Of a DNA stretch of 64,000 nt, positions 44,444 to 63,640 are shown piece after piece. Positions within the stretch are counted from its first letter, which is position 1, and each line of letters opens with the position of its first letter. Where the stretch lies: the IMG/VR virus record IMGVR_UViG_3300035698_006513. One strand, given 5' to 3'. A model generated the notes under the pieces. The model ran no database searches, was not told the DNA's origin, and saw nothing but the letters and a program-made list of their open reading frames with translations. A program made the translations under genes and the position numbers. This stretch comes from a virus.

Positions 44444-45162
44444 CAGGATTCTCCTCTTTCATGTAAGAATGTCTGGATGACAGTTTCTACCTCATCAACG
44501 AGCTCTACTTCGATACTTTCCAACTTTGCTTGTAGTTTGTCAGTAGATTCCCATGAGTATTGGAAGCTGTAGTTAAAAGACACAGGACAAAATACCCACT
44601 CGGGTTCTGTCGTAGATACTAATGCATCAGGAGCGGGGGTGACTGCTCCAATTACAGGCTCACCCAATGAGTGGAAACCTAAGCCTGTGATCAATGTTTT
44701 ACATTCCTGCAGCCAGAACCAAGTCAGCCATGCTATATGCTCTGCTTCGTCGGGGGTACGGGAACAACAATTCAGGGTTATACCGCCTGAAAGTAAGTGT
44801 GTTTTTTGTTGGTAATTATTGGATAGAGTGGCCGTCTGCACATTTGCACCAGCCCCCATACCCCTGTAATTACCTGCAGTGTTCTCCCTACTATATATAA
44901 TAGCAGGACGCAGTTCTGCCGTATCAGGTTTGAATGGGGCCTTGCCTGATATTATGAGACCACTGTCCACATGTACCTGTTTGTTCTCACCCTCCAGGTA
45001 CACATAAGATGGGTCATCCGAAGCAGCATACACTTCTTTGAGCCATCTAATCATAACTCTACGTAAAAAACGAAAGGGTGAGTATTGAAACGCATGTATC
45101 ATCATACGACGCTTTTCAATAATCTCCCTATTACTTAGTTGAGTCATCTTGGTTGGCCCCAT
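44443..45162 (-). CDS. tail completion/terminator-like neck protein
   Basis: Lies before the sheath; RPAIIYSR and ITLNCCSR...EAEHIA pattern. Confidence 0.5.
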   Translation of the reverse strand: MGPTKMTQLSNREIIEKRRMMIHAFQYSPFRFLRRVMIRWLKEVYAASDDPSYVYLEGENKQVHVDSGLIISGKAPFKPDTAELRPAIIYSRENTAGNYRGMGAGANVQTATLSNNYQQKTHLLSGGITLNCCSRTPDEAEHIAWLTWFWLQECKTLITGLGFHSLGEPVIGAVTPAPDALVSTTEPEWVFCPVSFNYSFQYSWESTDKLQAKLESIEVELVDEVETVIQTFLHERGES

Positions 45163-45659
45163 ACCACATCGGCAATATCTTCCGGTGTAGCGCCTTGGTT
45201 AACTAATACTTCTCTGCGAAATTCTGGGCTTATTGTACCTGATTCCGAAGTCATATGCACGGAAAAACCTCTGCGCTTAGGTTGTATTGCCTTTACTACT
45301 TTACGTACGCGGGCGTAGTCTTCATCAGGAACACGCAGTAAAACCTTACTGGCCATAGCACTCTGTACTGCAGCATCCCGCTGACGATCACGTTCACCCT
45401 TCAACCAAGTAAGAGCACCCGCAGTTAAACCTAAACCAACAGGTACCAATTTACTTTTTAATGCGTCTGGTATTTGGGGTATGAGTTTACCCGCAGCGAA
45501 TGTACCTGCAGCTGCACCCAAACCCACACCAGCTGCAATTGTCCCCGCTGCGGCAAGACGTCTACCCATAGAGGGCTGCTCCGTGTCACCGTAATTAGCC
45601 GACACAACCTCTTCAGCTGCGGACAATTTAGCTAATGTGTCTAAATATGAGTCAATCAT
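45144..45659 (-). CDS. glycine-zipper membrane protein
   Basis: Two Gly/Ala-rich hydrophobic helices; N-terminal AKLSAA. Confidence 0.6.
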   Translation of the reverse strand: MIDSYLDTLAKLSAAEEVVSANYGDTEQPSMGRRLAAAGTIAAGVGLGAAAGTFAAGKLIPQIPDALKSKLVPVGLGLTAGALTWLKGERDRQRDAAVQSAMASKVLLRVPDEDYARVRKVVKAIQPKRRGFSVHMTSESGTISPEFRREVLVNQGATPEDIADVVWGQPR

Positions 45660-46546
45660 ATCAACTTAACTCCTCCGAACATCCCCAAAAGTTCCCTAAC
45701 ATCATCATCAGAAAGTACATCATCACTAGTGGGGTTAGTAAGAACCCTTGTGTCTACTTCCGTATCGTACCGTGTTAGGTCACCTACGTCTATGGGTATC
45801 TTGTATTCTACATCCCCCCTGGGGATCTCATGTAGAATGATGTTCTGCTCGAAAGGTGACGCACGGTGCTCGGTTGTGACAACTTTCTCTACACGGAATC
45901 TTTTATTCTCAGAGGTAACTACAATGTCGCCCTGTTTTGCAGGAGGGAAATTAGACATACGACCCGATGTATTATTCTGTGTGAGTTTGGCTGTATCTGT
46001 ACTCCGAGTATCACTATCCACCTCTGCTACATCAATCTCAGTGCGTATGGGACTTAGGTATCCTCCCGCACGTTCTGTATCAAAACAATCTTCGCACCTA
46101 CTGCGGAATTTCGTACCAGATTCCATGTCCACGCAAGATATACAAGGCATACCTATTGTACGAATAGGTACCAAGAACGCCATACGTCCCGAGTACATCA
46201 GTTCCATCCGCACCTGACGAATAAGCTCCATACCAACTAAACCTGGTGCTGCGCGTAGACTACCTGGACCTAGCCTGTTTACTTCGGAAGGATTAGTGAT
46301 TGCACGTACTTCAACACAGTAATACAATGTGCGTGTGCGGCTAATCATAGAGGTGATATTATCTCTAAGATAATGCACACCTTGTATCCAACCTGTTAAC
46401 GCGCTCCAAGGACCTGCTGCTGATTCAGATCTTACTACACGCCACTCATGGTCACGCTCGTCGTAATCGCTGTCAGAGAATTCCCAGAATATATCTAACC
46501 AGTTGTACTCGAAGGATCTGACGGTTATGTTTGCAGATGAAATCAT
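45656..46546 (-). CDS. head closure/neck protein with FN3-like N-terminal domain
   Basis: W...WRVVRSES..GPW...LYYCV beta domain; CxxC...CxxC; GDIVVTSENKRFRV. Confidence 0.5.
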   Translation of the reverse strand: MISSANITVRSFEYNWLDIFWEFSDSDYDERDHEWRVVRSESAAGPWSALTGWIQGVHYLRDNITSMISRTRTLYYCVEVRAITNPSEVNRLGPGSLRAAPGLVGMELIRQVRMELMYSGRMAFLVPIRTIGMPCISCVDMESGTKFRSRCEDCFDTERAGGYLSPIRTEIDVAEVDSDTRSTDTAKLTQNNTSGRMSNFPPAKQGDIVVTSENKRFRVEKVVTTEHRASPFEQNIILHEIPRGDVEYKIPIDVGDLTRYDTEVDTRVLTNPTSDDVLSDDDVRELLGMFGGVKLI

Positions 46547-46606
46547 GATACTCTGCCTAAGTTAGGGTATAAGAGTACAGAAACTATAAACTAAAAGGAG
46601 TCTATC

Positions 46607-46711
46607 ATGTTGCGCTGCCTAGTTACTGCGCTAGTGCTATTATTACTCGGTGATTGGCGAGGGTGTATATTCGTACTAAAGACTGCGTGCGGCATATCTA
46701 AATTCCGCTAA
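46607..46711 (+). CDS. 34-aa hydrophobic peptide (not in ORF track)
   Basis: AAAAGGAG RBS; MLRCLVTALVLLLLGDWRGCIFVLKTACGISKFR. Confidence 0.45.
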   Translation: MLRCLVTALVLLLLGDWRGCIFVLKTACGISKFR

Positions 46712-49700
46712 TTGCCCTACGCCCGACATCTAGGTAACCTTTACCTAGATTACCGTCACCTCTAGATGGAGCATTTTTTAGTATTCTACGCCATACGGGA
46801 ACACCTGCTACTTTTGTTGTATCAACACCATCAGTGGGGTCGCGATACAACACGCCTTTCAGCATGATACTCGCCATAGTATCGCCTACAGGAATATCTT
46901 CATTGACCTTTGCCAACGTAGCTTCCTTCAAGCGCGTACCATAACTGTTAGCGTGGTCCAAGTCGTCAGGTGTAACTTCGTCCATAGGCTCGTTTTCTTG
47001 CTCGTGGTATCGATCATCTATTTCTTTATGTGCGCCAATAGCAGCACGCACTAGTATAGAGGATAGTTCCCCGTAATCTTTTCTGCCGACTACAACATCA
47101 CAAAGGTCCGACGCCACATCTTCAATACTGCTTGAAGGTTTATGTAAATCGTCTGGTACCCAGATACCTGCACCAACTAGGACTTCTTGTGCACCTGGAC
47201 CTACACCGAGACCCTCTGCCACACTACGCATTAGCTGCGTATGTACGCGGTCACTGTAGGCGAACTTACCAAAGTTCACAGGAGGTGGTGCTGCCATACT
47301 ACTCATATCGGCAGGCTTACTTCCTGAACCGGACATAATCCTCTGCATGACCAACGCACGCATAGAGGGGTCCATCTCGTCGAGAGAGTCAGCAACGTTA
47401 CCTGCAAAAGAGCGAGCCACCATCATACGATTTTGTACTGGTGCCATCGCAGCCATGTTCTCGATACCTTTTGCGGCTTGAGGAGACATGGCCTGCATAG
47501 CAGATACACGCTCTAGAAGACTAACTGCTTCTTTGGTCAACGCAGATGACGTTTTTTTTAAGTTATTATTGACAAACATCTCCATTTTAGCGTCTGACCT
47601 ACTAGCCGGACCTGAGTGTAAGCGATTCATCATATTCTCTGCTTCCCACGGCTTAGACGTACCAAAATTCTGCTCTAAGTACTTCCCTCCGGGATGTACT
47701 GTGTTTGCAGCAGTATCTGCTACCCTATTACCACCTCTCGACACAAGATTACCCACACGAGTACGTATGTTACTAAACATGCCTTCAGGTTTACCCTTCA
47801 CAGCCGAGCTTACTCTTTCAGTGACGTCTCCTATTTTAGAGCGCACCTTACCGGCGGCTTCATGTAACTTATCTGCGTAGGCATCACCCAAGCTATCTAC
47901 GTTGGGACGGGCTAACATCGCTATAGATCGGTTATTAACTCCTGTAGGAGGCTTAATTCCGAACTGTCTATACGGAAACTCACCTACTTCCTTATATCGT
48001 TCGTGGGCAACTCTCTCTAACTTTCTAGATGCTCTACTATTTTGTTGAACCGGCCTATGTCTAGTTCCACCAAACTGTGTAATAGCATCCTCTATATTAG
48101 GCTCTCCTGCAAAACTTGTATCCCCCATAAAAGTGCCACCTATACCGCGCTTCATCGCCTTACCCCCAAACCTAGCAGAGGACTCAATCTCTGCTAGTAT
48201 AGGGTCTACACCCATGTGAGATCCTACTCCTAGTGTGGATATACCTCCCAGTGTACCGCCGGATAATATGTCTTTACCTTGTCTCGCCGCGCGATTCATG
48301 GTGTTATATTCACCGAGCTCATGATTTAGTACGCCCGCTTTAAGACTAGGAGGATGGTTCCCCATAGTACCCATAGCTACGGTACGTGCTTCTGGTGCAC
48401 CTTGGTACGCGGGATTAGTACGAAGCATGAGTTTATGCACCAAGTCATCAGCCACAGGTTTAACTATATTGGGTACAGACTGTGTTGCAGAGTTGACAAA
48501 ATCAGGACGAGAAAACTGGGTCATTGACCTCGACAAATCCTGATTTGCCTGGACCACATTTGGAGCATTTTCATAAGATTTAACTAGTCTCTCTGCTTGC
48601 GCTTCTTGCGCAGCAGTGCTAGGTGCACTGCTTATTAAACTACCTCCCCTAGAAACCTCTTTGGCCTTACGTAATGCTACTATCTCACTAGGTAGTCTAG
48701 TTGATGCTTCCAAACCGCGAGCACCCTTACCCGAAACACCTAAAGATCCTTTAACCAATGTCTCCAATTCATGTATGGGGGTGGACATAGATTCAGCAAG
48801 TCGCAATTTAGAGGCGTTACCTAGGTTCTTCCAGTTAAGCATCCAAGAAGGTATAGCGGACTTCTCTAATGTATCTTCGTGTAACTGCTTCATCTTGGAC
48901 CAGAACGGTGATGCTGACTTACTCATGTCTTTTCTCCTGCGTACAACTTTACGTAAATCGGTGTTCAATCTATCTTTCTCTATGGCCACAGAGTCAATCC
49001 AACTATCTATGCCCTTCTCACTAGTACCGAATAACCGTTGTGTAAGAGTAGGCAGTGGATTAGAGAAGTACCTCTTTACTTCCAACTTACGGTCTTCAGG
49101 TTTTCTATGCGCCTGCCCACCCATACGTCTTCCTCGAGCTATTGCTTGCTCGTTACGTTCTGGGTTGTAGTGCCTGTCCACCTGAAAAAATGCAGTCGCA
49201 TTGTTTAGGGATATACCTTCGCCTGCGGCTGGAGTTAAGATTATAACTTTTTTCTTACCTTTATTAAAGTCAGCAACTGCTTTACTACGCGTTTCCTTTG
49301 TTACAGTACCACCAAGTGCGCCGCCTCCAGCAAAAATACCAGGAGTTATTCCTCTGTTCTTGAATCCCGCCTGCAATACATCCGCACCACCCTGCACGAG
49401 ATTAGAGTACACAACGGCTTGCCCATCTGGGGTACGCTTTAGATGTGCCTCAACATCATCCATGACTCGTCTGATCTTAGGAGTTTCTTCTGAGGACTGC
49501 TCCAACGTCATGTCTTTTTTGTGTGTAGATATGGAGTTGGAGACTTGTCGTGCTTTTGTGATGGCTGCAAATATATGTTGTGCTTCGGATTGATTCGTAG
49601 GTAGACCTAGGCGTATGGCTCTACGCTGTTTACGGGACAATTTACCTAACGTATACTTGTACAACCTGGTCTGTTCCGGTGACATCTCCACGTGTATGTC

Positions 49701-50444
49701 TTCTTTGTGTATAGCAGGCATGTCATTTACTAGGTCTTCGTGTCCTAAGAAGTGAAGGTACTTAGACAACTCTGGTGCGAGTACTTTTTTCTTCTGTAAC
49801 TCAGTCCTAGTCCTGGGGCCTTTTAGAAATCCACCCTTGATCTGCTCTTGTTTGGTATATGTTTTTTTGAATCCACGCTCAGACCCCATACTGTGTTCGG
49901 GACTTATAGCATCTAGTAGCGGTACAACTTCTTTTGGGTGGTTAGATACGAAAGAGCCTGTCATACCAATAAAGTTTTTCACGTCCATAGTGACTTCGCG
50001 CAAGGCTTTATTGGTTACTGATTGTTTGTTCTTGGCTCTGTGTATCTCGTCTACAATGATTGTATCTGCTTTTGCGTCTTGCAGAGCCTTATGTGGATCT
50101 CTGCGAAACTTAGATAGGGACATGATTTGATAATCAGACTTCCCATCCGCGCCCATAGACACAGAGCTGTTAGTAAATTTCTTCACGCCTTCTTGCTCAA
50201 AGTTCTCTTGTAAAGACGCGGGGGTAATTACTAATGCTCTCTCTGCTTTGTTATCTTCCCTCAAAGTCTCGAATGCAGCTATACCTGATAAGGTTTTACC
50301 TGAACCGGTTCCATGTGCGAGTAAACCACGGCCATCATTCTCTTGGATGAATTGTATTGCCTCTTCTTGGTGAGGACGTAGTTTAACAAATGGTTTGAGT
50401 GCGGATACTTTCGCAAAACAGGGGGTAGCTAACTTACTAAACAT
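46698..50444 (-). CDS. SNF2/SF2 helicase fused to long C-terminal modules
   Basis: LRPHQ, AHGTGSGKT, IIVDEIH, GMTGS, GEGISL and NPERNEQAIARGRR motifs; ATG 50444 follows AGAGGT. Confidence 0.85.
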   Translation of the reverse strand: MFSKLATPCFAKVSALKPFVKLRPHQEEAIQFIQENDGRGLLAHGTGSGKTLSGIAAFETLREDNKAERALVITPASLQENFEQEGVKKFTNSSVSMGADGKSDYQIMSLSKFRRDPHKALQDAKADTIIVDEIHRAKNKQSVTNKALREVTMDVKNFIGMTGSFVSNHPKEVVPLLDAISPEHSMGSERGFKKTYTKQEQIKGGFLKGPRTRTELQKKKVLAPELSKYLHFLGHEDLVNDMPAIHKEDIHVEMSPEQTRLYKYTLGKLSRKQRRAIRLGLPTNQSEAQHIFAAITKARQVSNSISTHKKDMTLEQSSEETPKIRRVMDDVEAHLKRTPDGQAVVYSNLVQGGADVLQAGFKNRGITPGIFAGGGALGGTVTKETRSKAVADFNKGKKKVIILTPAAGEGISLNNATAFFQVDRHYNPERNEQAIARGRRMGGQAHRKPEDRKLEVKRYFSNPLPTLTQRLFGTSEKGIDSWIDSVAIEKDRLNTDLRKVVRRRKDMSKSASPFWSKMKQLHEDTLEKSAIPSWMLNWKNLGNASKLRLAESMSTPIHELETLVKGSLGVSGKGARGLEASTRLPSEIVALRKAKEVSRGGSLISSAPSTAAQEAQAERLVKSYENAPNVVQANQDLSRSMTQFSRPDFVNSATQSVPNIVKPVADDLVHKLMLRTNPAYQGAPEARTVAMGTMGNHPPSLKAGVLNHELGEYNTMNRAARQGKDILSGGTLGGISTLGVGSHMGVDPILAEIESSARFGGKAMKRGIGGTFMGDTSFAGEPNIEDAITQFGGTRHRPVQQNSRASRKLERVAHERYKEVGEFPYRQFGIKPPTGVNNRSIAMLARPNVDSLGDAYADKLHEAAGKVRSKIGDVTERVSSAVKGKPEGMFSNIRTRVGNLVSRGGNRVADTAANTVHPGGKYLEQNFGTSKPWEAENMMNRLHSGPASRSDAKMEMFVNNNLKKTSSALTKEAVSLLERVSAMQAMSPQAAKGIENMAAMAPVQNRMMVARSFAGNVADSLDEMDPSMRALVMQRIMSGSGSKPADMSSMAAPPPVNFGKFAYSDRVHTQLMRSVAEGLGVGPGAQEVLVGAGIWVPDDLHKPSSSIEDVASDLCDVVVGRKDYGELSSILVRAAIGAHKEIDDRYHEQENEPMDEVTPDDLDHANSYGTRLKEATLAKVNEDIPVGDTMASIMLKGVLYRDPTDGVDTTKVAGVPVWRRILKNAPSRGDGNLGKGYLDVGRRAISGI

Positions 50445-50454
50445 GAGTACACCT

Positions 50455-53130
50455 CTACAAATCGTAGCAACCATCGTCCGCACGAACACTAGCAGTTTTT
50501 TCTGGAATTTCGTACACGTATAAGTCACGCATGATGTTGTCTTGTTGGTCTAAGTCCTGTCTACGCCAACGCATACTCAGATTGATATTTTTTGCAAAAC
50601 CTTTAGATGCGTGTTTGCTCTCTACCGTATGGTTATTCTCACATGTAAAGGACTCGCCTGTCTGTGCCTGCGACAAACCCCCACAAATAGGGCAGTTTAG
50701 CTTTGTCCCTGCTGTAGGTTCATCCACAGAAAAACCCATATCCCTCATTCTATCACGAGTCTTTTTTTGACGGGTATTCCAAACAACCATACGGGGGTCG
50801 TCTTCAGGAATATCTGCCCACTCTTCGCCTGCTCTTCTTTCTTGTTTATCTTGCCAAGCTACATCATAACCACAGTCATCACAATGTGTATGGTATCGAG
50901 GACCATCATGTAAGATACCTTGGCAATCGGGGCAATGTGCAATTACGTCATACTCAGACTCTTTAGATATAGAAGCAACCTTACCTAAACCCACAATAAC
51001 CTCTGTATCGTCAGACTTAGCCAAGTCACCAGGACGTACTGCATTACGGGACTTGCCTTTACGAAAGTCCATATCATGATAGGCATGTGCGATAATACCG
51101 GAACAATGTAACACAGTAAATGCATCGTCTTTATCGGAACGTTTCTGAGGGATAAATGCTCCAACGACATTGGACATCCAAGATGGGTAGTCTACACCTA
51201 TCAGATCCTTAACACGGGAAATTGCTTTGCTCTTTTCTTTATCCGAAACTTTAGGTCTGAGTAGTAATGCGTCTCTGTCCGCTAATACAGACTCTACTGT
51301 AGATTTTCTGGCGGCAGCTTCACCGCTGTCCCCTCTTCTAGGTATTTTGAATGGTGTACCATGTACAACATCACCCTTACCGACGCACATACTTGTGTGC
51401 GTCCAAGGGGAGTTAGTACCTATTTGTATACCTATGTTAGTGAGCCGTTTGTGTATTGGGTATACTTCCTCTTTGGGTTTGGTAACGATGATGTCACCGT
51501 CGCGGATTGACTTAATAAACTCTTTCTCGCTAGAAGCGGCCTCTGCTCCCATGAGATGTCGGGGCTTCAGTTCTGCGACTTTATCTAGCCAGTGAGGTAT
51601 ACCTGACACAACGTCATCAGACACAGAATCCCAGTCGCCATTGAAAGGCACAGCTCTATCATCTATATAATGATGTGCGATAACTTTTCCAGATGCACCT
51701 TCAGGTTGGTCGGGGTTCTCGTTAATGAAATCGTACGGAATATCGTACTTGGCCATGAACTCTTCCACGGGACCCTTGTCGCCACGTACTGTAAATACAA
51801 TTACGCGGTACCCCGCGTCCTTGAACTTAAGCATCGCATCACGTGCACCATTAACAGGTTCTCCTGTAGGAAGACTCAAAGTGCTATCGAAGTCTACGGC
51901 GATAGTCTTCTGTGCCTCAGACACTTTAACCTCACCCAGTAACTGCTGTGCATCTTCCATCTCTTCTGGGTCCAGGTCGGACAGACTGTCTACCCCTAAG
52001 TTTTCCTGCACAAACTCACGGGCACGCATAGGGTCAGAGAGAAGACCTTTATCGTACAGCTGCTCCTCAAATTCTTCTGCATCTGCAGACTTAGTGAGTG
52101 CTTCCCACGCAATGTCTAACTGGGAAGCAGTCTTCTCAGACACTACCTTACCTAGACCACTACCAGCCGCCGCCCCTACAGCAGCAACTGCGGGAGCGAG
52201 TAAGAAACCCATACCATCTCCAGTAGACGCGGCAAGTGCTCCTGTGCCAGCAGTGGCACCCAGAGCAGCACCTATCATTTCCTGTGGGGTGAGTTCTGTG
52301 TCGTACGTACTGTTGTAAAGCTTCTGTCCAAGTAACGCACCGCCAGCCCCACCAACTAATGCTCCACCAATAGCTCCGGCAGCATTAGCTGCACGACCTA
52401 GACGAAGTTTATGTGCCAACATAGCCAGTCCATAAGATCCTGCGAATGCGCCACCCATACCACCTACGCCAGCACCAACTGCGTTAGCAGCTGCGTCGGA
52501 TGCGAGTTTGACCGCTTTCTTTCCCCTACGTTCCAACTTCTTCTGCAGATCATAGATAGTCATTGGAGTGTCAGATAAGTAAAACTCGCGCCAGTTGTTG
52601 TAATGCTGGGTGAATATCTTAAACGCTTCGTCGCGACTCTTGCACCCGAGAATAACTTTGTCTTCGTCGTGCGTGCTTTTTGTGCCCTTCTTTTTAAGAT
52701 GCACGACTAATACAAAATCTGAACTCTTATCTGGTCCAATAAAGCAGTCAACAGGATCCCCATCGGTACCCACTGTACCTAAGATTTCTCCGTACGGGTG
52801 CTTCATCTCAGTTTCCCAGGACTTACCATCAGGGTCAACGCCTCTGCGTTTAGAACCTCTGCGGTTTTCTATAGCAATGCGTAAGTCTTTGACTTTAGTC
52901 ATGTAATGGACGGGGTACGATTCTCTGCCCTTCGCTTCCTTCACTACCTCCGGCGCAGGAGCAGGGTAAGCAGTATCTGGTACGGAAGATGTATCAGGAT
53001 GTAACTCAGAGTAGACGTGAAGCCGCTGCAGTATTTCAGGACCCCTAGTAGGGTCTTGTAGGTAAGCACCTGTACCTCTAACACCACGTCTAATTAACCT
53101 AGAAATAAGTCGCTGTGCTTCACTATCCAT
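50455..53130 (-). CDS. polyvalent protein: InPase + Gly-zipper + HAD phosphatase + permuted NlpC/P60 + Zn ribbons
   Basis: IENRRGSKR...YGEILGTVGTDGDPVDCFIG; IAVDFDSTL...FTVR...YIDDRA; GDIIV...WTHTSM...HCSGIIAHAY; CPDC/CDDC/CPIC. Confidence 0.8.
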   Translation of the reverse strand: MDSEAQRLISRLIRRGVRGTGAYLQDPTRGPEILQRLHVYSELHPDTSSVPDTAYPAPAPEVVKEAKGRESYPVHYMTKVKDLRIAIENRRGSKRRGVDPDGKSWETEMKHPYGEILGTVGTDGDPVDCFIGPDKSSDFVLVVHLKKKGTKSTHDEDKVILGCKSRDEAFKIFTQHYNNWREFYLSDTPMTIYDLQKKLERRGKKAVKLASDAAANAVGAGVGGMGGAFAGSYGLAMLAHKLRLGRAANAAGAIGGALVGGAGGALLGQKLYNSTYDTELTPQEMIGAALGATAGTGALAASTGDGMGFLLAPAVAAVGAAAGSGLGKVVSEKTASQLDIAWEALTKSADAEEFEEQLYDKGLLSDPMRAREFVQENLGVDSLSDLDPEEMEDAQQLLGEVKVSEAQKTIAVDFDSTLSLPTGEPVNGARDAMLKFKDAGYRVIVFTVRGDKGPVEEFMAKYDIPYDFINENPDQPEGASGKVIAHHYIDDRAVPFNGDWDSVSDDVVSGIPHWLDKVAELKPRHLMGAEAASSEKEFIKSIRDGDIIVTKPKEEVYPIHKRLTNIGIQIGTNSPWTHTSMCVGKGDVVHGTPFKIPRRGDSGEAAARKSTVESVLADRDALLLRPKVSDKEKSKAISRVKDLIGVDYPSWMSNVVGAFIPQKRSDKDDAFTVLHCSGIIAHAYHDMDFRKGKSRNAVRPGDLAKSDDTEVIVGLGKVASISKESEYDVIAHCPDCQGILHDGPRYHTHCDDCGYDVAWQDKQERRAGEEWADIPEDDPRMVVWNTRQKKTRDRMRDMGFSVDEPTAGTKLNCPICGGLSQAQTGESFTCENNHTVESKHASKGFAKNINLSMRWRRQDLDQQDNIMRDLYVYEIPEKTASVRADDGCYDL

Positions 53131-53143
53131 AATAAGTACTCTC

Positions 53144-55726
53144 TTATGCTAAGGCGGCGATTTGCTCTTGTGTTCCAGAGCTACCTAAATCCTGAAGCGT
53201 CTGAATCAATTCTTTGGCATTAGAACTAGGGGCTTCGCTTTTATGCGAAATCAAGTTGGACACGAGGGGGGATTTTTGGGCGGATTGTTCTGCACCCTTT
53301 GCTATTACTTCAGCGGCATGATTAGGTCCGTATTTATTATACAAACCGCCTGCAAGTAATCCGCCAGCACCCATGATGGGAAACTTGTATTTATCCCAAA
53401 AAGATTGGTCCTCTGCTATCTTGGGCTCGGCCACAGGTATGGGAGTTTCGACAGGAGCATCTTTCATCTGCTCAAATTCACGTAAGGCGAGCTGCTTCTC
53501 TAGTGGCAGAGTTGCTCTACCAATAGCACCGCCGCCTAAGTAACCAGCAGCAGCACCTATAATTGGCGCTATCACTCCGGGGTGGACAGCTTTACCTGCA
53601 GCACCACCGGCTACCATACCACCAACACCAGAATAGTAAGGACGTAAAGTTTGCTCCAGTGTAAGGGATTCCGGAGCTATAGCTGCTAAGTCAACTTCTG
53701 CAGTTTTTCTAAGCACAGACTTAATGTGTCTCATGGCAGACTCTTCTGATGCACCATGTAGATTAAGCGCTGCTGGGGACATCTTGTCTAAATCATGTGT
53801 AGATAGATGCGTGGATAAAACTTTCCATCCTGCGCGTACATCATCAGACTGGGTACCAAATGCTTTGATCGCCTCATTCGGGTGCACATTAAGTGCTCGA
53901 CTTGCAATCGTCTGTAGTTTCTCGCCGCCGTTACGGAACCCATTCCACATTTTATTGCCCATGACACCTGCAGCAAAACCGCCACCTGCTAGTAATGCAG
54001 GCTTAATCCAAGGCTTGATCTTATCCATAACAGATGGTTTTGTATCACCTTCTTGTGGAGGTGATTCTGGGCTTGCGGGAGGTGACACAAGATTCTCAGC
54101 ACCTTGTGCAAACTCACCATAATGTGGGCGCGTTAGTGTGCGGTAATCGGGAGCTGCGGTTTTTTTGTTGGCGTAAGCAGAGTCCATAAGTGCCTTTGAC
54201 AGATTAGCTCCTTGTATAGAGCCAACACCTGTACCAAGACCTGCACCTACTGCTGACCCCAAAGCGCCACCTACACCTGCAGCCATTTCAGACTTAAGGA
54301 GTGCTCCAGGGAGAGCCCCGATGAGAAACCCGCCAGGTGTGCCGACTGTATTACCCACAACAGAACCGGCTAAACTGCCAGCACCGCCAGCAATACCACG
54401 CAGGACTTGTTCCGATACCGCGTCGGATTTAGATTCTCCTACACCGCGGGCTACACCATATGCAGTGGCAAGTGTAGGTACGACATAATTGAGCAGTGAC
54501 GCTGTTTTTTCTGGGACCTCTTCGGGTAACTCTTCAGGCACAACATCCACTTCTTTTGGCTCTTCTTCTGCGTACGCTTTATCCATCAGATTTTTAGCTA
54601 CGCCCGTCAATGACCGTGCTCCAATGACACCGCCTATACCAGTACCCAAACCCCCACTGATATCCATAGCCATGCCTACAGGCACTTCAGGTACGTTACT
54701 TGAGAGTAAGCCTCCGCCTACCACACCACCCAATGCACCAATAGTACCACCTAGAGCAGATCCAGCTGCACCGGAAACTCCGCCTGCTAAACTTCGCAGT
54801 AGGGCTTCGGGGATATTACCGGACTCCGCCTCGGACAACCCTCTTGCTGCTCCGTACACTCCACCCACAATAGGTACAGCATATTCTAACAGCGCTTCTT
54901 TAACTGCAGCAGTTTTCTCCACAGATCCAGGTGCCTTTATTGGGGAACCTAGAGAACCAGATGCCATACTAGCGGTACCATAACCTACTGCAGCATTAGC
55001 AAGAGTGTTGAGTGCCGCCGTAAGATGCGGGTGACCTTTTTGTATCTTGTCCATCTTCAGTGAGATCTCTGACGTAAACAATCTGGCCTTATCAATGACG
55101 TTGAAATCACCGCCGTCCTTACGACCCTTAAGGTCTTGGACTTGCGCCTCAATCATCTCTGTACGCGCTTTATCTTTGGATGCGTTATAGCTGTTCAGAG
55201 CACCCAAGCCGCCAGAAGCTGCTGCTACTGTGGTGTTGAATAATGTAGGCTTGAACACCTGCATAATAGATGCAGACTTCTCTTCTCCTGTCAGCACAGG
55301 CCCGTTAGGTCTCTTCAGGGCAAGAGCGCCTACACTTCCTGCTACTCCACCTATACCTGTAGCTAAAGCTCGTGATGTTGCTGTATGGTCTCGCATCATA
55401 CCTGGGGTATCCCCTGCGATTATCATTCTGTCACCACCACTATGAAGAAAGTAAGGACCCTTACTGTGAGTAACGTCTGGGTAATCTTTTCTCAGCGTGT
55501 TTAAAGCACTTTCTATGGAGGACTTAGGTATATCGAGTGCTAGATTATGATCTATCGCTCTATTGATAAACGTCTTTCGGAGCATTCCAGCAGATAAACC
55601 GCCTACACCTGCTCCGATACCTGCACCCACTAAAGGGTTACTATCAGTGATACTTGCACCAATAGCGCCGATACCTGCACCTAGCCCACCACTGATGAGT
55701 ATATCCTTCAATCGATCGCTGTTCAT
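53144..55726 (-). CDS. large glycine-zipper multi-module membrane/virion protein
   Basis: More than 10 GxxxG-rich hydrophobic helices in modules separated by KxA motifs; start by TAATG overlap. Confidence 0.75.
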   Translation of the reverse strand: MNSDRLKDILISGGLGAGIGAIGASITDSNPLVGAGIGAGVGGLSAGMLRKTFINRAIDHNLALDIPKSSIESALNTLRKDYPDVTHSKGPYFLHSGGDRMIIAGDTPGMMRDHTATSRALATGIGGVAGSVGALALKRPNGPVLTGEEKSASIMQVFKPTLFNTTVAAASGGLGALNSYNASKDKARTEMIEAQVQDLKGRKDGGDFNVIDKARLFTSEISLKMDKIQKGHPHLTAALNTLANAAVGYGTASMASGSLGSPIKAPGSVEKTAAVKEALLEYAVPIVGGVYGAARGLSEAESGNIPEALLRSLAGGVSGAAGSALGGTIGALGGVVGGGLLSSNVPEVPVGMAMDISGGLGTGIGGVIGARSLTGVAKNLMDKAYAEEEPKEVDVVPEELPEEVPEKTASLLNYVVPTLATAYGVARGVGESKSDAVSEQVLRGIAGGAGSLAGSVVGNTVGTPGGFLIGALPGALLKSEMAAGVGGALGSAVGAGLGTGVGSIQGANLSKALMDSAYANKKTAAPDYRTLTRPHYGEFAQGAENLVSPPASPESPPQEGDTKPSVMDKIKPWIKPALLAGGGFAAGVMGNKMWNGFRNGGEKLQTIASRALNVHPNEAIKAFGTQSDDVRAGWKVLSTHLSTHDLDKMSPAALNLHGASEESAMRHIKSVLRKTAEVDLAAIAPESLTLEQTLRPYYSGVGGMVAGGAAGKAVHPGVIAPIIGAAAGYLGGGAIGRATLPLEKQLALREFEQMKDAPVETPIPVAEPKIAEDQSFWDKYKFPIMGAGGLLAGGLYNKYGPNHAAEVIAKGAEQSAQKSPLVSNLISHKSEAPSSNAKELIQTLQDLGSSGTQEQIAALA

Positions 55727-56205
55727 TATCCTAACCCCCAATACCCGTAAAGACCATTGATAAGTGCGTACTCAGAATGGAGAGTACTGCCGCCAAGTGC
55801 GCGTGCTAAGTTCTGAGAGATCTTCCACTCCTTGGCTGTCTCTTTGAAGTCAGCCTGTAACAGCTGTATCCAATTCATCAACTGGGGAATACGGTCACTC
55901 AAACCTATACCAGTACCTCTTCCTGTACGATAAGATATATGGTTACGTGTCATCAAGAGACCTACGGATTGGAGTAGGAAAATCACAGCGCCTGTACGCA
56001 AGATAGGAAGAGGTAAATCATCTACAGGTATAGGGGGGGACATCATCCGGACACGTTCCAACGTGTCAAATAAGGCCATAGCAATAAGTTTGTCGCTGTG
56101 CTCTTTACCCGCAACGAGGCGGTTGAGCTCCGGCTCATCGCGCATAAAGGAGCGCACATATTCTATGAGAAATCTAGCACGTTGAAGTTCTGTGTCCCGA
56201 CTCAT
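55726..56205 (-). CDS. head-tail adaptor/neck protein (putative)
   Basis: Helical 159-aa protein two genes after the capsid; VRSFMRDEPELNRL. Confidence 0.5.
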   Translation of the reverse strand: MSRDTELQRARFLIEYVRSFMRDEPELNRLVAGKEHSDKLIAMALFDTLERVRMMSPPIPVDDLPLPILRTGAVIFLLQSVGLLMTRNHISYRTGRGTGIGLSDRIPQLMNWIQLLQADFKETAKEWKISQNLARALGGSTLHSEYALINGLYGYWGLG

Positions 56206-56208
56206 GTC

Positions 56209-57098: not shown

Positions 57099-58223
57099 CT
57101 AGAAAATCACCACTTTGGGTACGTAGATACCTTTGTATGCGAGAGCTTGGTACTCAAACGGAGCTTCTTCAGTATCGGGGATGACACTGGAGAGGATACT
57201 ATCAGTATCGTGAGACGTTGCGTCGCCCGAGTATAGTTCCAATTTCTTGACGCCAGCGACATTGAGAATCGCCATAGCGATGTCTTCCCAAGCCCACCAC
57301 ATCAAACGGTTGCCTTCCTTCTTAGCGAAGAATTGCATCTGCCCGAGTTGGTAACTGCGGCCCAAGTAATTGGGTTTGGCAAAAGAGTAAACGTTACCCG
57401 GTCGGAGCACTTTACCTTTAATGGTACGCACAACTGTGAGTCCCAAAAGGGTAGGAGATTTCCAACCAGTTTTGGCGGTTTCACCTTCGACCTGAGAACC
57501 GAGATCTTCAATAGTCCATGCATCGACGTGAGACAAGTCACTATCAGTGATGAGCAGCTTGTCGGCGCGGTTACGGGTATTGAAGTGGAGTCGCTTGAGA
57601 GCGGCGATGTCGGGACGCTCGAGGGGACGAGCAACGCCATCATCAGCAGCTGCATTACGAGCGCGTTCGCCTTTTACGACGGCCCACTCAGTAACAGAAC
57701 CTGCGGCCAAGGCACTCATGTTGAGGGCAGTGACGGTTCCGCCATTACCTTCTTGTTGCATGGCTTGGACAGCAGCTTCGACGTGCTGAATCCACTCGCG
57801 ATCTTCGATTTCTTCGATGTCGAGAGGAGTGTTGTCCTCAATAACCTTCGTAATTGGGTACGGATAGGTCATGAGTTCTTGGGTGGTGATCTCAAAACGT
57901 TCACTGGCGATCGAGAAGAAACCCATTGCGGCTTTGGGGCCACGGATAATTCGAGCAGATGGTCCACCACGGAAGTTGAAAACCATTGCGCGAGATTTGG
58001 GCTCGAGCCATTCGATCTTGGTGAAGGTATCGTGATCTAAAGAAACCTGAAGCCCTGGGGCTCCGGGACCAATGTTAACCATTGGGACAAGCTTGCGGTT
58101 GAAAGCGGCTTCGCGGATGTGGTCTCGTACAACCTTACTACCGTGAGCTGATGCTTCGCCGGGGTCAGCGGCAACCTTTTCGATGAACGCCGCATTAGCG
58201 AATTGCGCAGCAGTCATAGCCAT
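57099..58223 (-). CDS. major capsid protein
   Basis: 374 aa; strong AGGAGG RBS; position after protease, scaffold and decoration genes. Confidence 0.75.
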   Translation of the reverse strand: MAMTAAQFANAAFIEKVAADPGEASAHGSKVVRDHIREAAFNRKLVPMVNIGPGAPGLQVSLDHDTFTKIEWLEPKSRAMVFNFRGGPSARIIRGPKAAMGFFSIASERFEITTQELMTYPYPITKVIEDNTPLDIEEIEDREWIQHVEAAVQAMQQEGNGGTVTALNMSALAAGSVTEWAVVKGERARNAAADDGVARPLERPDIAALKRLHFNTRNRADKLLITDSDLSHVDAWTIEDLGSQVEGETAKTGWKSPTLLGLTVVRTIKGKVLRPGNVYSFAKPNYLGRSYQLGQMQFFAKKEGNRLMWWAWEDIAMAILNVAGVKKLELYSGDATSHDTDSILSSVIPDTEEAPFEYQALAYKGIYVPKVVIF

Positions 58224-58843: not shown

Positions 58844-58892
58844 TCTTCGTTCCCTCCTAGTGGAACAGGATTATCAAAAGAGGAGCAATGGG

Positions 58893-59321
58893 CTAAGAAA
58901 TAAACCCTGCGCCTTCCATACTTGAGGACATCAACCACTCATTCATATCAGCAGACGCACCGGTTTGCTGCGCAGAGGGGCTGTAATTTTCATCTTGTGC
59001 TGTAACATTGTGACTTCCCACGGATGCCAACTTGGGGTCGTTAGCTCGTAGGTCAACAGCTCGTTCAAGCACGTGAAGGTCTTCACCCGACTGGGCCAAT
59101 TTAATGGCATAGTCAAGGGGGTCAGAACCTTCCATGAAACGCGGGTCCACAGCCTTAGCAATCTTGATGGCATGGGTAAGGCGGTCATACGAAGATGATA
59201 CCTTTTCCAATTCAACAATTCTTTGGTACGACTGTCGATTGTCTTGTGCGGCTTCTTTTAAAAGGGTTGCCGCGTCGGTATAAGTCAACTTTTCCACGAC
59301 TAGCTCCTTAAGCGCCTGCAA
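58893..59321 (-). CDS. scaffold/core-like protein
   Basis: Helical; multiple KxA motifs; head module. Confidence 0.5.
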   Translation of the reverse strand: MQALKELVVEKLTYTDAATLLKEAAQDNRQSYQRIVELEKVSSSYDRLTHAIKIAKAVDPRFMEGSDPLDYAIKLAQSGEDLHVLERAVDLRANDPKLASVGSHNVTAQDENYSPSAQQTGASADMNEWLMSSSMEGAGFIS

Positions 59322-60303
59322 GTGATTGGCCGCCCATCATGTCGACGCCCATCATGCTTTCTTTTTCCTGAGAGTCTTCACTCTCATCTTCTTTCTCGTC
59401 TTCTTTCTCGTCTTCTTTCTCGTCTTCCTTTTCATCTTCTTTGGAACCTTCAGAGAATTGCTCCTCTTGTGCGTTCTTAATGAATGAAGCGAGGAATGAA
59501 CGGGCGTCAGAAGCGGTCTTGTGTACATCTGGGTGACCGGGACCCGCACCGGAACCGGAGTCAACGTTTGCTTTGTTTGACTGTGGTTCAGTAAGAGGGA
59601 ACTCTCGGCTCTTGTTATGATCTTCCAGCACGTTAGCCTCAGTCTTACCTACATCAACGGGACTACCGCTGGTGAAGGGTCCGCCTGTACCTGTTGCAGG
59701 AATCTTGGAACTTTCGTCGTCCTTGGGGCCGTCCCCAGGAGGTTGGACGCCTCTTCCAGAATCACCAACAGGAATGCTATCTGTGGCAGCAGATACTTTC
59801 TTCATCAAAAACATACGAGCGCTGGCTGCTTTCTCAGTGAGGGCAGAGCTGGAAGAAGTGTAGCTAAGACCTTCTTCATTGTTCTCGTCAGTCTTGATGT
59901 GGTTGGGTCCACGTTCATCTGTTTCCATGCCTTCGGTTCCAGTCTTATACTTACTGCCTTCTGCAGGAGTAAGATGTCCACTGGGAACGGCCATTGTTTC
60001 ATTGTCGGTGGGACCAATGGGAGAAGCAGGTTGCACTTTGGCAGGACCTGCGTCAGAGGGGTTCGTATTGACTGCGTCTTCAGCTTGCTTTGTGAGTAAC
60101 TCAGCAGCGATTTCGTATGCAGACGCAGATTTCAACAGACCATCATTAAGAGGTTGGGTGGGAGGTTCCACCTGAGAAGTTGACTGAGCTGTGGGAATAC
60201 GTCCCTGAGCACTGGCCTGCTTCACAATCTCTTTATTCTGGTTGTACGCATTAGTAATCGCATCGAAGATACCTAATGGCGCAGTATAGCTTTGATCTGC
60301 CAT
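59308..60303 (-). CDS. disordered acidic scaffold/core protein
   Basis: Low complexity; (EDEK)n repeat; seven KxA/KxS motifs. Confidence 0.55.
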   Translation of the reverse strand: MADQSYTAPLGIFDAITNAYNQNKEIVKQASAQGRIPTAQSTSQVEPPTQPLNDGLLKSASAYEIAAELLTKQAEDAVNTNPSDAGPAKVQPASPIGPTDNETMAVPSGHLTPAEGSKYKTGTEGMETDERGPNHIKTDENNEEGLSYTSSSSALTEKAASARMFLMKKVSAATDSIPVGDSGRGVQPPGDGPKDDESSKIPATGTGGPFTSGSPVDVGKTEANVLEDHNKSREFPLTEPQSNKANVDSGSGAGPGHPDVHKTASDARSFLASFIKNAQEEQFSEGSKEDEKEDEKEDEKEDEKEDESEDSQEKESMMGVDMMGGQSLAGA

Positions 60304-60355
60304 AACCTAATCCTTATTGTAAGGAGTTTCAGGAGTAGTACGCGGACATTGATAC

Positions 60356-61969
60356 CTACGACGTGAATTCCCAGCCCTTCTCAGCAAGAAGTCTGCGGGC
60401 ATCAGCATGAACTTGCTGAGGGTCGTACTTAGAAGTAGCAACATTGTTTGCGTTTAGAATAGACTGAGCAACTTTAATCACTTCTTCTGTGTAAGTGTCT
60501 TGGGCGGAAGCGGTGGCTTCTTTAGGTCCACCAGCTGCGGCTGCGCCTAGTCCAGCAGCACCACCTAGTCCAGCAGCACCAGCGAGGTATCCAGCGGCGG
60601 GGGCACCAGCGGTACCTGCAGCAGCGGGAATCAAGGTCTCACCTAAACCTGTAGCGCCTGCATGAGCGGAAGAGCCAACACCTTTAAGGTATTGTTGTAG
60701 TTTAGAGAGCCAGCCCTCTTGCATAGGTCCCATTGCACCCATTGCATGAGCTTGTTCACCAAGAGCCATACCTGCGCCCGGAGGACCCATTGCTTCTTTG
60801 GGAAGACCAAAGGCGATTTTGGCGAAGAGGTTGTCGACATACCCGATGTTGTCTTCACTCAGCTCATTGAGGTTTAGTTGACCTGTATGATAGGCAGTGT
60901 GAATTTGGGCAGCAGCAAGTTTCTCTTGCTCAGAGTAGGTGTATGCTTCCGCGGGAAGCGCAGAGGCAATCTTGGCCATTGCAGTTTTTTGTTCTTCTGG
61001 GGCAGGCATGTTGTCAGACATAAGATGCTTAATACCCATACCACCAAGAATGGCAGCGAGGGGAGCACCATAACCAGCAACACGATTAGCAATTGGATGA
61101 GAACCTCCACCGACAATGGCGTTACCAAGTTGAGAGGCTTTGCTGTCAACATACTTAGCAGCACCACCCAAGGCACCGGGTATTGCTTTAGCAGCATTAA
61201 CTGTTGCATCAGCAGCACTACGTCCGCCGCGGCGAACCTTGTCCATGAGAGTATTTGCGTCGGCTGCACTGGCAGCGAAGTTCTCAGCACCAGCAGCAAC
61301 TTCGGCAGCAGGAGCGATTCCTGACATACCGCCACCACTAGCTTGAGCAGCTTGTGCTGGGTTCAAAGGAGCTTGTGCAATGGGGACACCTCCCACATCT
61401 TTCAAGTACATTGAACCCCCAAAACCTCCAAGCATACTAGGATCTGCGTCTGGGCCATAAAGAGCCGAGTTAGCAATTTTTTGGAGAACGTAGGCAGATT
61501 CTTCTTGGCTGAGATTGGCTAGATCAACTTGACCACTCTTAACAGCATCAAACCATTGAGCGCCAGAGATCTTCATGAACTCGTCTTGAACTTCTTTGCT
61601 CTCTTGGTCAGCAGCAATCTTCTGCAACTCAGACCAATGAGAATGAGCAGTAATAACTCCACCCAACTTATGGCGAGCCATGAAAGCAGAAGCTTCCTTT
61701 TGACTCATACCTGTTTCTGTAAGCTGTTGATTTGCAGAGGCGAGCTTATCATTACCTGCTGCTTGCTGGTCTCCTCGGCTAACGATACTAGCAATCTTCA
61801 CAACTTCTTCATCAGTCATGGCGTCGAGGCTAAGTTCGCCTGACGAAATGGCGTCTAGAATTTGTGCAGCAGCTTGTTTCTCGTAGGCGTCTCGCTGAGA
61901 AGCGTCATCCCCGGTACCATTGGTACCAAACATGGCGGCAATCTCCGGATTCATATGTTCGGTGATCAT
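60356..61969 (-). CDS. Ala/Gly-rich internal head protein with repeats
   Basis: About 14 KxA motifs, three repeats of about 35 aa, and Gly-zipper segments. Confidence 0.6.
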   Translation of the reverse strand: MITEHMNPEIAAMFGTNGTGDDASQRDAYEKQAAAQILDAISSGELSLDAMTDEEVVKIASIVSRGDQQAAGNDKLASANQQLTETGMSQKEASAFMARHKLGGVITAHSHWSELQKIAADQESKEVQDEFMKISGAQWFDAVKSGQVDLANLSQEESAYVLQKIANSALYGPDADPSMLGGFGGSMYLKDVGGVPIAQAPLNPAQAAQASGGGMSGIAPAAEVAAGAENFAASAADANTLMDKVRRGGRSAADATVNAAKAIPGALGGAAKYVDSKASQLGNAIVGGGSHPIANRVAGYGAPLAAILGGMGIKHLMSDNMPAPEEQKTAMAKIASALPAEAYTYSEQEKLAAAQIHTAYHTGQLNLNELSEDNIGYVDNLFAKIAFGLPKEAMGPPGAGMALGEQAHAMGAMGPMQEGWLSKLQQYLKGVGSSAHAGATGLGETLIPAAAGTAGAPAAGYLAGAAGLGGAAGLGAAAAGGPKEATASAQDTYTEEVIKVAQSILNANNVATSKYDPQQVHADARRLLAEKGWEFTS

Positions 61970-62056
61970 ACGTCATTCTCCGATATTCAGAATTTTTTGG
62001 GGGTATCTCGTAAGGCGTGTCTACGGAAAAATAGTCCTCGACACCTACGGAAGGAA

Positions 62057-63640
62057 TTACTGGAGTGCCTGTGCCGCTCGCCGAAGAGTTGGGGTCACGA
62101 GTTCAGGACTTGATTGGATCATGTTTGAAATATTTGATCCGTATGCATGAACAGTATACGCAATAGTGGATCGAGACACAAGAGGTTCCGCTTGTTTGCT
62201 CAGACCTGAAGACAGGTCTGACAATTCGCCTGAGTACAACACATTGTATAACTCAGGGAAATCAGAGAACATTTCTGCACCAGACGCAATCTTTTCCAAC
62301 GCAGCCAAACGGTACCCGTTGTACAGTGCACTGAGTTTGCGCATGTCTGGAGTGTCGTTAAACCGATCCTCTGTGGATGGTTTTTTGATCGTGATGCGTA
62401 TGATGCGTTTGTTAATTGCAGGACCGTAGGATGATCTATTAGAAACCATCCCCAGAAGCATATTAGCCAAACCCTTCAAGAAGTGATCGTGTGCAAGTTG
62501 TTCATGACAGTTAGTAACTTTGTTTGTGTCTGGGAAACGCATACCCATGTTGTCCATAATATCAGCCAATCCGTGATTACCGCGACTAACTAATGCAACA
62601 CGTTGAAATTCTTTGGGTTTAAGAATCATACCCATACTTGATGTAGTAGCTAACGCTTGTGGTAAACCAGCCGAACCTAATGCGTTCAGCATATCAGTGG
62701 GTATAGATGGTTCATGTTGGGAGAATACTTTCATACTCTTACCAATGGGACCTGACTGATCACCATCTATGCGTTTGTGTATAGTAGCGTTTTTATCCGC
62801 AGCATCTTTATCCGCAGCATCTTTCATAAGGTACTCAGCAAGTTCTGCACTTGTACGCACTGATGTGTTTGCTACTTTTAGAAGCGTCTTCGCTTCATTA
62901 GCAGCACCAATCCATACGCGACTGAAGTCAAAGAACTTAGGTCGCGGGTTGTCGACACATATACGCAAACCCAATTTCTCTGGAGTAAGGTTCTCAAACC
63001 CCTTACGGCCATAAAAGTCTGCAGTAATGATTGTATTGGGGTAGCGTTTCATGTGTATGCAATACTCTTTACGAGTCTTTGCTTTGTTCCCACAGTAAGA
63101 GCATACGTCGTGCGGAACACGTGCGCCCATACTCCAAGCAGGAAACTCCCCACGTCCAATAGCTTCTATAACATCCTCAGCTCCAACCTTAGCCGCACGC
63201 TCTCTGTCTAACTTTACGATAGACTCGACGCGATCTAGGTATTTAGGTGCGGACGCGAACACAACGAAGTCGATGTCCCCATAAGACTTCTTAGGGTCTT
63301 TGTTAAGATGGTGCTTGTATATACCTGCAGTCTTGAAAGTTTCAATCCCCCAATCCTTACCTGTGTACGCAAGTACTGACCTGAGAAATCTATCAGCATT
63401 TACATTAGAACCCCATGTTTCGCCAGCACCCATATTCGAGCACAGTGCGTACATGTAACGGTCATTCATCGGATGGATGTTGAGCACGTGCGAGTAGATA
63501 TATTCGTACACATCGGGATGAACACCTGACGTAGCGACCTTCTCTAGCTCTCCGTGCCTTAAAGCGTAAGGATCTAATACGTCAAAAACGTCTAGACCCT
63601 CTCCACCAGTCCAGCCAGTCGGTTGGATAATCTTTTCCAT
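62057..63640 (-). CDS. prohead (maturation) serine protease with Zn ribbon
   Basis: N.NADRF, YKHHLNKD..KSYG and WSMGARVPHDVCSYCGN...YCIH pattern of large-phage prohead proteases; lies upstream of scaffold and capsid. Confidence 0.75.
   Translation of the reverse strand: MEKIIQPTGWTGGEGLDVFDVLDPYALRHGELEKVATSGVHPDVYEYIYSHVLNIHPMNDRYMYALCSNMGAGETWGSNVNADRFLRSVLAYTGKDWGIETFKTAGIYKHHLNKDPKKSYGDIDFVVFASAPKYLDRVESIVKLDRERAAKVGAEDVIEAIGRGEFPAWSMGARVPHDVCSYCGNKAKTRKEYCIHMKRYPNTIITADFYGRKGFENLTPEKLGLRICVDNPRPKFFDFSRVWIGAANEAKTLLKVANTSVRTSAELAEYLMKDAADKDAADKNATIHKRIDGDQSGPIGKSMKVFSQHEPSIPTDMLNALGSAGLPQALATTSSMGMILKPKEFQRVALVSRGNHGLADIMDNMGMRFPDTNKVTNCHEQLAHDHFLKGLANMLLGMVSNRSSYGPAINKRIIRITIKKPSTEDRFNDTPDMRKLSALYNGYRLAALEKIASGAEMFSDFPELYNVLYSGELSDLSSGLSKQAEPLVSRSTIAYTVHAYGSNISNMIQSSPELVTPTLRRAAQALQ

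Follow-up and report, generated by a model that had tools for sequence, protein, structure and literature searches.

We analysed the window, a stretch of 64,000 nucleotides from the IMG/VR virus record IMGVR_UViG_3300035698_006513, and found that a short motif, Lys-x-Ala (K-x-A), is enriched in the proteins of its phage head module. Judging from the sequences, we put at about 0.7 the probability that this phage's prohead protease, which has the gp21 fold, recognises Leu-x-Lys-x-Ala-(Ser/Ala) as its signal for autoprocessing, scaffold fragmentation and N-terminal trimming of the capsid protein. Whether the same motif also separates the modules of packaged cargo polyproteins is, in our estimate, an even bet. 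The head module lies on the minus strand, from 63640 down to 46698, and comprises 11 proteins.

Enrichment of the Lys-x-Ala motif in head proteins

Across the 11 head proteins, we counted 65 K-x-A (38.1 expected), 28 K-x-A-[SA] (7.4 expected), 18 K-x-A-S (2.8 expected) and 17 L-x-K-x-A (2.95 expected), and for each pattern none of 500 per-protein shuffles reached the count. A previous sequence-only reading of this DNA had put roughly 50 copies across the region 45144-63640. The motif is indeed abundant in the head proteins there, but the real count is 65 K-x-A, about 27 of them in excess, and the proteins of 173, 159, 296 and 171 amino acids (aa) carry no site.

When all 400 X.Y residue pairs were scanned without bias, K.A ranked first and L.K second, and among 8000 X.YZ patterns K.AS was the sole top-ten entry with more than 3 occurrences. 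Reversed or altered motifs occurred in the head proteins as expected (observed/expected: A.K 40/38.4, SA.K 5/2.9, R.A 25/27.2, K.S 25/26.5, K..A 34/38). Since the reversed motif and the other spacings stay at expectation, the composition and helical periodicity of Lys/Ala-rich helices are excluded as the cause. The site logo showed Leu at position -2 (3.3-fold) and Glu at -1 (2.8-fold) before K-x-A, and Ser at +3 (3.7-fold).

All open reading frames (ORFs) of the window were also scored with a weight matrix built from the flanks only, for which four relatives, namely Salmonella phage Arash and three metagenomic contigs, had supplied 122 training sites. The matrix found 22 sites in the head proteins, where 1.5 were expected, and none in the other ORFs, the tail-fibre-like ones included, where 1.5 were likewise expected. 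Enrichment over shuffled sequences and over non-head ORFs thus holds after correction for composition, as the previous reading had proposed. Outside 45144-63640, a greedy ORF call in which the 891-aa ORF was dropped gave 1 K.AS (3.1 expected) and 7 K.A[SAT] (8.5 expected). None of the known protease codes was enriched in the head proteins: the T4 code [LI].E occurred 41 times (45.2 expected), the phiKZ code [SAG].E 89 times (99.8 expected) and the herpesvirus code [VLI].AS 4 times (8.3 expected).

The prohead protease

The protease gene (62057..63640, minus strand) encodes 527 aa. Its only profile match was PHROG 18299, 'head maturation protease' (E 5.9e-6, residues 100-201). The gp21-like catalytic domain of the protein (residues 16-245; 62906-63595) is joined by a linker to a helical extension at the C-terminus. 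An AlphaFold (AF2) model made from 17 homologues was confident over residues 20-242. VIA-align superposed residues 16-245 on T4 gp21 (5jbl_B) with a Z score of 10.0 and a root-mean-square deviation of 2.9 A over 143/164 residues, and Foldseek matched the model to gp21 with a probability of 0.99. The next unrelated VIA-align rows scored at most Z 5.4. The assemblins of human cytomegalovirus (HCMV), Epstein-Barr virus (EBV) and Kaposi's sarcoma-associated herpesvirus (KSHV) scored Z of about 4-5. All 17 homologues, the most distant at 25% identity, keep H111, S170 and D238. These are probably the catalytic residues, matched to gp21-type enzymes by the His-Ser-Asp order that has been reported for gp21 and gp245 (PMC5694885). 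S170 lies in the WSMG sequence that the sequence-only reading had noted.

Sites were found at K34, K255, K273, K278, K283, K450 and K482. K34 precedes the catalytic domain and is conserved down to 25% identity. Just past the domain lies K255-V-A-N (62867..62878, minus strand), in which K255 and A257 are at least 90% conserved down to the same identity; its segment (243-269) has a predicted local distance difference test score (pLDDT) below 50. The sites at K273-283 also sit in a segment with pLDDT below 50, and K283 is again at least 90% conserved among homologues down to 25% identity. The site K482-Q-A-E (62186..62197, minus strand) is located 45 residues before the C-terminus, in a segment of low pLDDT (471-496, below 50), and K-x-[AS] recurs in this region of the alignment in most homologues. 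The motif therefore does flank the catalytic domain, as first noticed, and does so at conserved positions. By analogy, this layout resembles that of autoprocessing in gp21-type enzymes and that of herpesvirus fusions of protease and scaffold, in which a release site would correspond to K255 and a maturation site to K482.

Two further features of the protease gene were observed. A Cys-rich insert (residues 180-200; 63041-63103) lies between the catalytic Ser and Asp, with invariant C180, C183 and C194 and a nearby His, and may be a zinc ribbon. To our knowledge, an insert of this kind is not a feature of T4 gp21. In the closest relative (L004:3451-6353), the protease gene is split into ORFs of 441 and 329 aa by an opposite-strand ORF of 180 aa, and three other homologues of about 880-920 aa (P0125, P0127, P0143) contain intein/LAGLIDADG domains (PF14528, PF05203, PF14890). 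This gene appears to be a preferred target of selfish elements.

Scaffold-like proteins and the major capsid protein

The scaffold-like core protein of 537 aa (60356..61969, minus strand) carries 13 K-x-A, where 5.3 were expected, and 8 matrix sites against 0.19 expected. Three of its sites are kept in 3/3 orthologues while their flanks have strongly diverged. The scaffold-like protein of 331 aa (59308..60303, minus strand) carries 6 K-x-A, 4 of them K-x-A-S; HKTAS is kept in 4/4 orthologues and three other sites in 3/4. All four sites of the small 142-aa head protein (58893..59321, minus strand) are present in 4/4 orthologues. None of these three proteins belongs to a known family, and for the 537-aa protein none was found in Pfam or PHROG.

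The major capsid protein (374 aa; 57099..58223, minus strand) was recognised by its PHROG major head protein match. It has a site close to its N-terminus, as the sequence-only reading had said, although the Lys numbered 15 there is K16 when Met1 is counted (I-E-K16-V-A-A-D, 58167-58178). We found K-x-A at most 30 residues before the conserved IRDRLRE helix in 117/120 homologues, down to 44% identity. The distance is exactly 9 residues in 108/120, and 16 residues in the subclade of the window. About 200 metagenomic homologues of the capsid protein were found, and a tblastn search of 50,697 phage records gave no match. The expected conservation of the motif in homologues is thus seen in the scaffold-like orthologues, in the capsid proteins and at the protease flanks.

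Large proteins encoded downstream of the capsid gene

Three large proteins follow. The putative Gly-zipper cargo protein of 865 aa (53144..55741, minus strand), which belongs to no known family, contains hydrophobic GxxxG blocks at residues 11-55, 123-144, 277-382, 413-509 and 706-745. The sites K155, K276, K412 and K527 separate these blocks, such that K276 and K412 enclose the block 277-382, and K412 and K527 the block 413-509. The matrix found 4 sites where 0.27 were expected. Residues 154-331 align to three orthologues from their residues 14-21 onward, and K155 (EEKSAS) aligns to the N-terminal K-x-A-S of each (K22, K15, K18). K155 therefore matches the K-x-A-S with which a putative N-terminal leader of 14-21 residues ends in the relatives. 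The window's copy has about 150 extra N-terminal residues before K155, which hold two Gly-zipper segments. A Pfam match to adenovirus protein VI (E 0.075) was below any threshold and was set aside. The start of this ORF is more likely the ATG at 55726, giving 860 aa and overlapping the upstream TAA by one base.

The putative polyvalent cargo protein of 891 aa (50455..53130, minus strand) joins unrelated domains in one late protein, namely an InPase (PF18823, E 2.8e-31), a HAD-like domain and Cys-rich ribbons. From the N-terminus, we found a leader (1-63), K64, the InPase (68-210), K208, a Gly-zipper block (213-332), K333 and K347, the HAD-like part (405-512 plus 530-715), K717, a Cys-rich Zn-ribbon region, K839 and K878. 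The only confident folds in the AF2 model are the InPase (68-210, pLDDT above 94) and the HAD-like domain (405-512, pLDDT about 90). All six strong sites (K208, K333, K347, K717, K839, K878) are located outside these two folds, and the Gly-zipper block 213-332 lies exactly between K208 and K333.

Comparison of homologues gave the borders of the modules in the 891-aa protein. Four blocks (4-51, 72-213, 357-519 and 813-891) are common to the 1265-aa orthologue of L004, and the intervening material differs. A stand-alone homologue of 334 aa (P0148) covers residues 397-715, and many InPase-only proteins cover residues of about 65-215. For the 11 module edges, which are not fully independent, the median distance to a K-x-A is 7 residues, and 7/11 are within 10 residues (permutation p of about 0.002-0.003).

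Two side observations concern the domains of this protein. PHROGs labels residues 405-512 (51595-51918) as 'phosphoheptose isomerase' (phrog_1238, E 1e-20). As the DFDST motif and the confident Rossmann-like model are typical of HAD-family phosphatases, the label is probably misleading. Among InPase homologues (P0146-P0294), many unrelated metagenomic proteins have, just after the module, a conserved basic run ending in K-[LIV]-[AS]-[SA] (KKLVKISS, HKKLAS, GEKVAS). In 54/148 homologues K.A[SATG] occurs within about 20 residues of the module end, and a few proteins terminate there. From these sequences, use of a related K-x-(A/S) signal may extend well outside the present clade.

The third protein, of the SNF2 helicase family (1276-aa ORF; 46698..50528, minus strand), was identified by the Pfam families SNF2-rel_dom, ResIII and Helicase_C. 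It combines the helicase with about 750 further residues. The helicase core spans residues 45-476, and K537-S-A-S and K556-S-A-I come after it. Past the core, the homology between the window's protein and its L004 orthologue ends at a point that has a K-x-A-S no more than 8 residues away in both. Residues of about 540-1276 (46698-48900, about 740 aa) have no detectable family, with only sub-threshold CsbD-like and DUF4019 matches. The start is probably M29 (50444), 11 bases past the stop of the 891-aa gene, while the GTG at 50528 overlaps that gene by 74 bases.

The sequence-only reading had placed the motif in all three large proteins and between their recognisable domains. The first point is borne out for the 891-aa and 865-aa proteins and is weakly supported for the SNF2 protein, which is not enriched overall. 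The second holds for the strong 891-aa sites outside confident folds and for the bracketed Gly-zipper blocks.

Other genes of the head module

Upstream of the protease gene, the window end cuts a motif-bearing head protein, of which the C-terminal part remains (63656..64000, minus strand; 2 K.A, 0.4 expected). In the same slot L004 encodes a protein of 280 aa with 8 K-x-A, matched by position. The other members of the head module are the 173-aa, 258-aa and 159-aa proteins. Gene order is kept in three related contigs whose capsid proteins are 63-86% identical, and in their large-protein slot the number, size and domain content of the proteins vary. By analogy, the position of the large-protein genes between the capsid gene and conserved downstream genes, together with the InPase context, suggests that these proteins are inside the capsid and are ejected.

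Proposed mechanism

In the mechanism that we propose, the prohead would be assembled around the gp21-fold serine protease of 527 aa, with its N-terminal catalytic domain and C-terminal helical extension. After shell assembly, the protease would recognise a linear signal with the consensus Leu-(Glu)-Lys-x-Ala-(Ser/Ala). It would cut itself on both sides of its catalytic domain and near its C-terminus, and would also cut three or four scaffold-like core proteins, the capsid protein about 17 residues from its start, and the cargo. In the cargo, the signal would play a double part, as the end of a short N-terminal leader (like the T4 capsid-targeting sequence) and as the joint between modules. One packaged polypeptide would then be split inside the capsid into Gly-zipper pieces, which are probably membrane-active, and into enzymes, namely a pyrophosphatase of the InPase type, a HAD-like phosphatase and possibly the helicase core of the SNF2 protein. 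These products would leave with the DNA.

Known enzymes give hints of two possible positions of the cut. Cleavage between Ala and Ser would be like that of assemblin, and two InPase homologues whose natural ends are K-I-S or K-I-Q hint at such a position, after the third residue. Cleavage after Lys would instead parallel T4 L-x-E|, with the hydrophobic residue two positions before.

Evidence against the mechanism and alternative explanations

Several results weigh against a Lys-x-Ala protease signal or limit its support. The protease has no Pfam match at E up to 0.01 and no PDB sequence match. Internally repeated modules, such as EKTA[AS]...YG.ARG in the 865-aa protein, supply part of the enrichment, so the K-x-A sites are not all independent. 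K103 of the protease, a matrix match, and K437 sit inside folds and are probably not sites, and the N-terminal site of the capsid protein could be kept for structural reasons. Location outside folds is by itself a weak test, because pLDDT is below 50 over 45% of the 891-aa model and 6/10 K-x-A are outside folds against 4.5 expected. The SNF2 protein has 10 K.A against 8.7 expected and no matrix match. With one site region and no overall enrichment, it gives the polyprotein idea weak support. The Arash paper reports homologues of the motif-rich proteins in virion preparations, with their termini not given. Finally, cutting at the sites, and by this protease, is what we infer from the sequences. 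Packaging, ejection, membrane activity of the Gly-zipper pieces and a role against host defence are likewise predictions, and the phrase 'effector enzymes' in the sequence-only reading draws on domain names only.

We weighed these points against four other explanations. It is unlikely that the motif is an uncut docking signal, which would bind core and cargo proteins to the shell interior, the portal or the protease and leave them intact. Such a tag would sit near the N-termini of cargo proteins, where the cargo orthologues do have the motif; P1 DarB provides an example of an N-terminal targeting signal, with no shared sequence, and the presence of the Arash homologues in virions would also agree with docking. 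However, docking hardly accounts for up to 13 copies per scaffold-like protein or for the internal module joints, and the motif stands on both sides of the protease's own domain, as in the autoprocessing of gp21-type enzymes and assemblin (PMC5694885). We consider it distinctly improbable that the motif is a by-product of descent, a linker or helix cap that was duplicated along with repeats, was spread by recombination and has nothing to do with the protease. The 865-aa and 537-aa proteins do contain paralogous repeats, which speak for such an origin, but the motif occurs in contexts as unrelated as the capsid N-arm, the protease flanks and the ends of the InPase, the HAD-like module and the SNF2 core, its Lys and Ala are kept while the flanks diverge, and non-head proteins are without it.

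General knowledge adds the idea that the Lys is modified or cross-linked, for instance through capsid isopeptide bonds, with no proteolysis. An invariant Lys in exposed linkers would suit this idea, yet family scans recognised no modifying enzyme in the head module, and an invariant small residue two positions on, followed by Ser/Ala, better fits protease subsites. The flanking of the protease domain would also be left unexplained, and we hold modification to be very improbable. Chance has a negligible likelihood. The Ala/Lys-rich composition of these helical head proteins does give a high baseline of 38 K.A, but chance is refuted by the shuffles, which never reached the counts, by the reversed motif and altered spacings, and by the matrix (22 sites against 1.5). 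A Lys-x-Ala signal of the head protease, the proposal of the sequence-only reading, is favoured by a motif that is head-specific, conserved in variable linkers and placed on both sides of a gp21-fold domain, in proteins where neither a Glu code nor the herpesvirus code is enriched; its cutting step is the part that stays predicted. The companion proposal of cleaved polyproteins gains from the 891-aa and 865-aa proteins, with their avoided folds and variable module edges, and gains little from SNF2.

Relatives and literature

Searches with the protease domain matched Salmonella phage Arash gp222 (38% identity), Vibrio phages D181, D148 and D69, Bacillus phage G gp19, Rhodococcus phage Finch and cluster-C mycobacteriophages. 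In Arash, gp220, gp223 and gp225 reach the K-x-A density of the window's scaffold-like proteins, and the capsid protein has GLVKEAGA at residue 27. Mycobacterium phage Cali encodes gp93 (L007:8788-12648; 1286 aa), labelled 'tape measure', two genes upstream of the one for the major head protein. At its N-terminus, gp93 is 35% identical to the protease domain over residues 101-197, and a [KR]-x-A-[AG] pattern is unclear at best in Cali. Judged by this match, the 'tape measure' annotation is probably wrong for about 200 cluster-C mycobacteriophages.

Documented cuts in SPN3US, phiKZ and T4 are after Glu (PMC5694885, PMC10052503), and the P1 capsid protein is cut likewise. P1 gp23 was considered as a precedent for K-x-A and rejected, because this capsid protein is cut at MLE|SVAAEM, a Glu code. 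The multi-omics paper on phage G contains no cleavage data, and in the literature, including capsid termini of phage G, Arash, P1 and actinophages, we found no experimental cut at K-x-A. We also found no paper on a Lys-x-Ala phage protease code, an absence that is not proof that none exists.

If the proposed signal is real, a deep and widespread branch of the gp21 fold has switched its specificity from Glu to Lys-x-Ala, and sequence could serve to predict head-internal and ejected proteins for thousands of genomes of uncultured phages. We suggest, tentatively, that in a large and mostly uncultured clade of big phages (with Arash, D181, D148, D69 and, more distantly, phage G among its cultured members) the Lys-x-Ala code forms a plug-in system. 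Modules placed between sites, such as Gly-zipper peptides and a possible counter-defence pyrophosphatase, phosphatase or helicase, would be packaged, cut free, injected and swapped. The reading is testable in cultured relatives, such as Salmonella phage Arash.

Comparison with known systems

The closest known system is T4 gp21 (PDB 5jbl, MEROPS S77; substrates gp22, gp67, gp68 and gp23), which has the same fold and the same His-Ser-Asp order. As in T4, the protease gene stands in the head module beside the scaffold-like and capsid genes. Core proteins hold numerous copies of the short motif, the capsid protein has one near its N-terminus, and the key charged residue is preceded, at a distance of two positions, by a hydrophobic one (L-x-K here, L/I-x-E in T4). 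In T4, the motif also ends short leaders of internal proteins; candidates for such leaders are seen in the 865-aa orthologues, which begin 14-21 residues before K-x-A-S, while the window's copy has its long extension and the first site of the 891-aa protein is K64. Unlike T4, the probable signal is Lys-x-Ala rather than x-x-Glu, with [LI].E at expectation, and the large cargo proteins have sites between their enzyme modules as well. The enzyme itself also differs from gp21 in its length of 527 aa, its long helical C-terminal extension, the Cys-rich insert (C180/C183/C194) and the lack of a Pfam protease family.

In the large phages phiKZ (gp175) and SPN3US (gp245; MEROPS S80), the protease trims many head-internal proteins at a short motif, as is predicted here. 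Autoprocessing and multiple cuts within propeptides have been described for these enzymes (PMC5694885, PMC10052503). They cut after Glu (S/A/G-x-E or A-x-E), and nearly all of their cuts remove N-terminal propeptides, whereas here the code is different and is also carried by internal joints between modules. Herpesvirus pUL26 and pUL80a (MEROPS S21), in which assemblin is fused to scaffold, likewise combine an N-terminal protease domain with a helical extension, and the positions of K255 after the domain and K482 near the C-terminus are alike. The fold is related (Z of about 5), and the Ala-Ser pair resembles the A|S bond of assemblin sites. In contrast to the (V/L/I)-x-A|S sites of herpesviruses, however, Lys stands two positions before Ala here, with [VLI].AS at 4 against 8.3 expected, and the third catalytic residue is probably Asp instead of His.

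The large proteins also resemble polyvalent proteins (Iyer, Burroughs, Anand, de Souza and Aravind 2017, PMC5512222), including P1 DarB and DdrB, in that late-region genes join unrelated enzyme domains such as InPase PF18823 and an SNF2 helicase. Polyvalent proteins, those with InPase included, were predicted to be packaged, delivered with the DNA and processed into units, and the processing was assigned to an embedded zincin-like peptidase (metallopeptidase) domain (PMC5512222). Pfam and PHROGs scans at E up to 5 found neither a zincin-like (MPTase) nor another peptidase family in the three large proteins of the window. Here, in contrast to that assignment, the prohead protease would do the processing in trans, by cutting the K-x-A joints. 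If these joints are really cut, a head protease frees enzymes and membrane-active peptides from packaged polyproteins, and this would be a trans-acting answer to the processing problem posed for polyvalent proteins.

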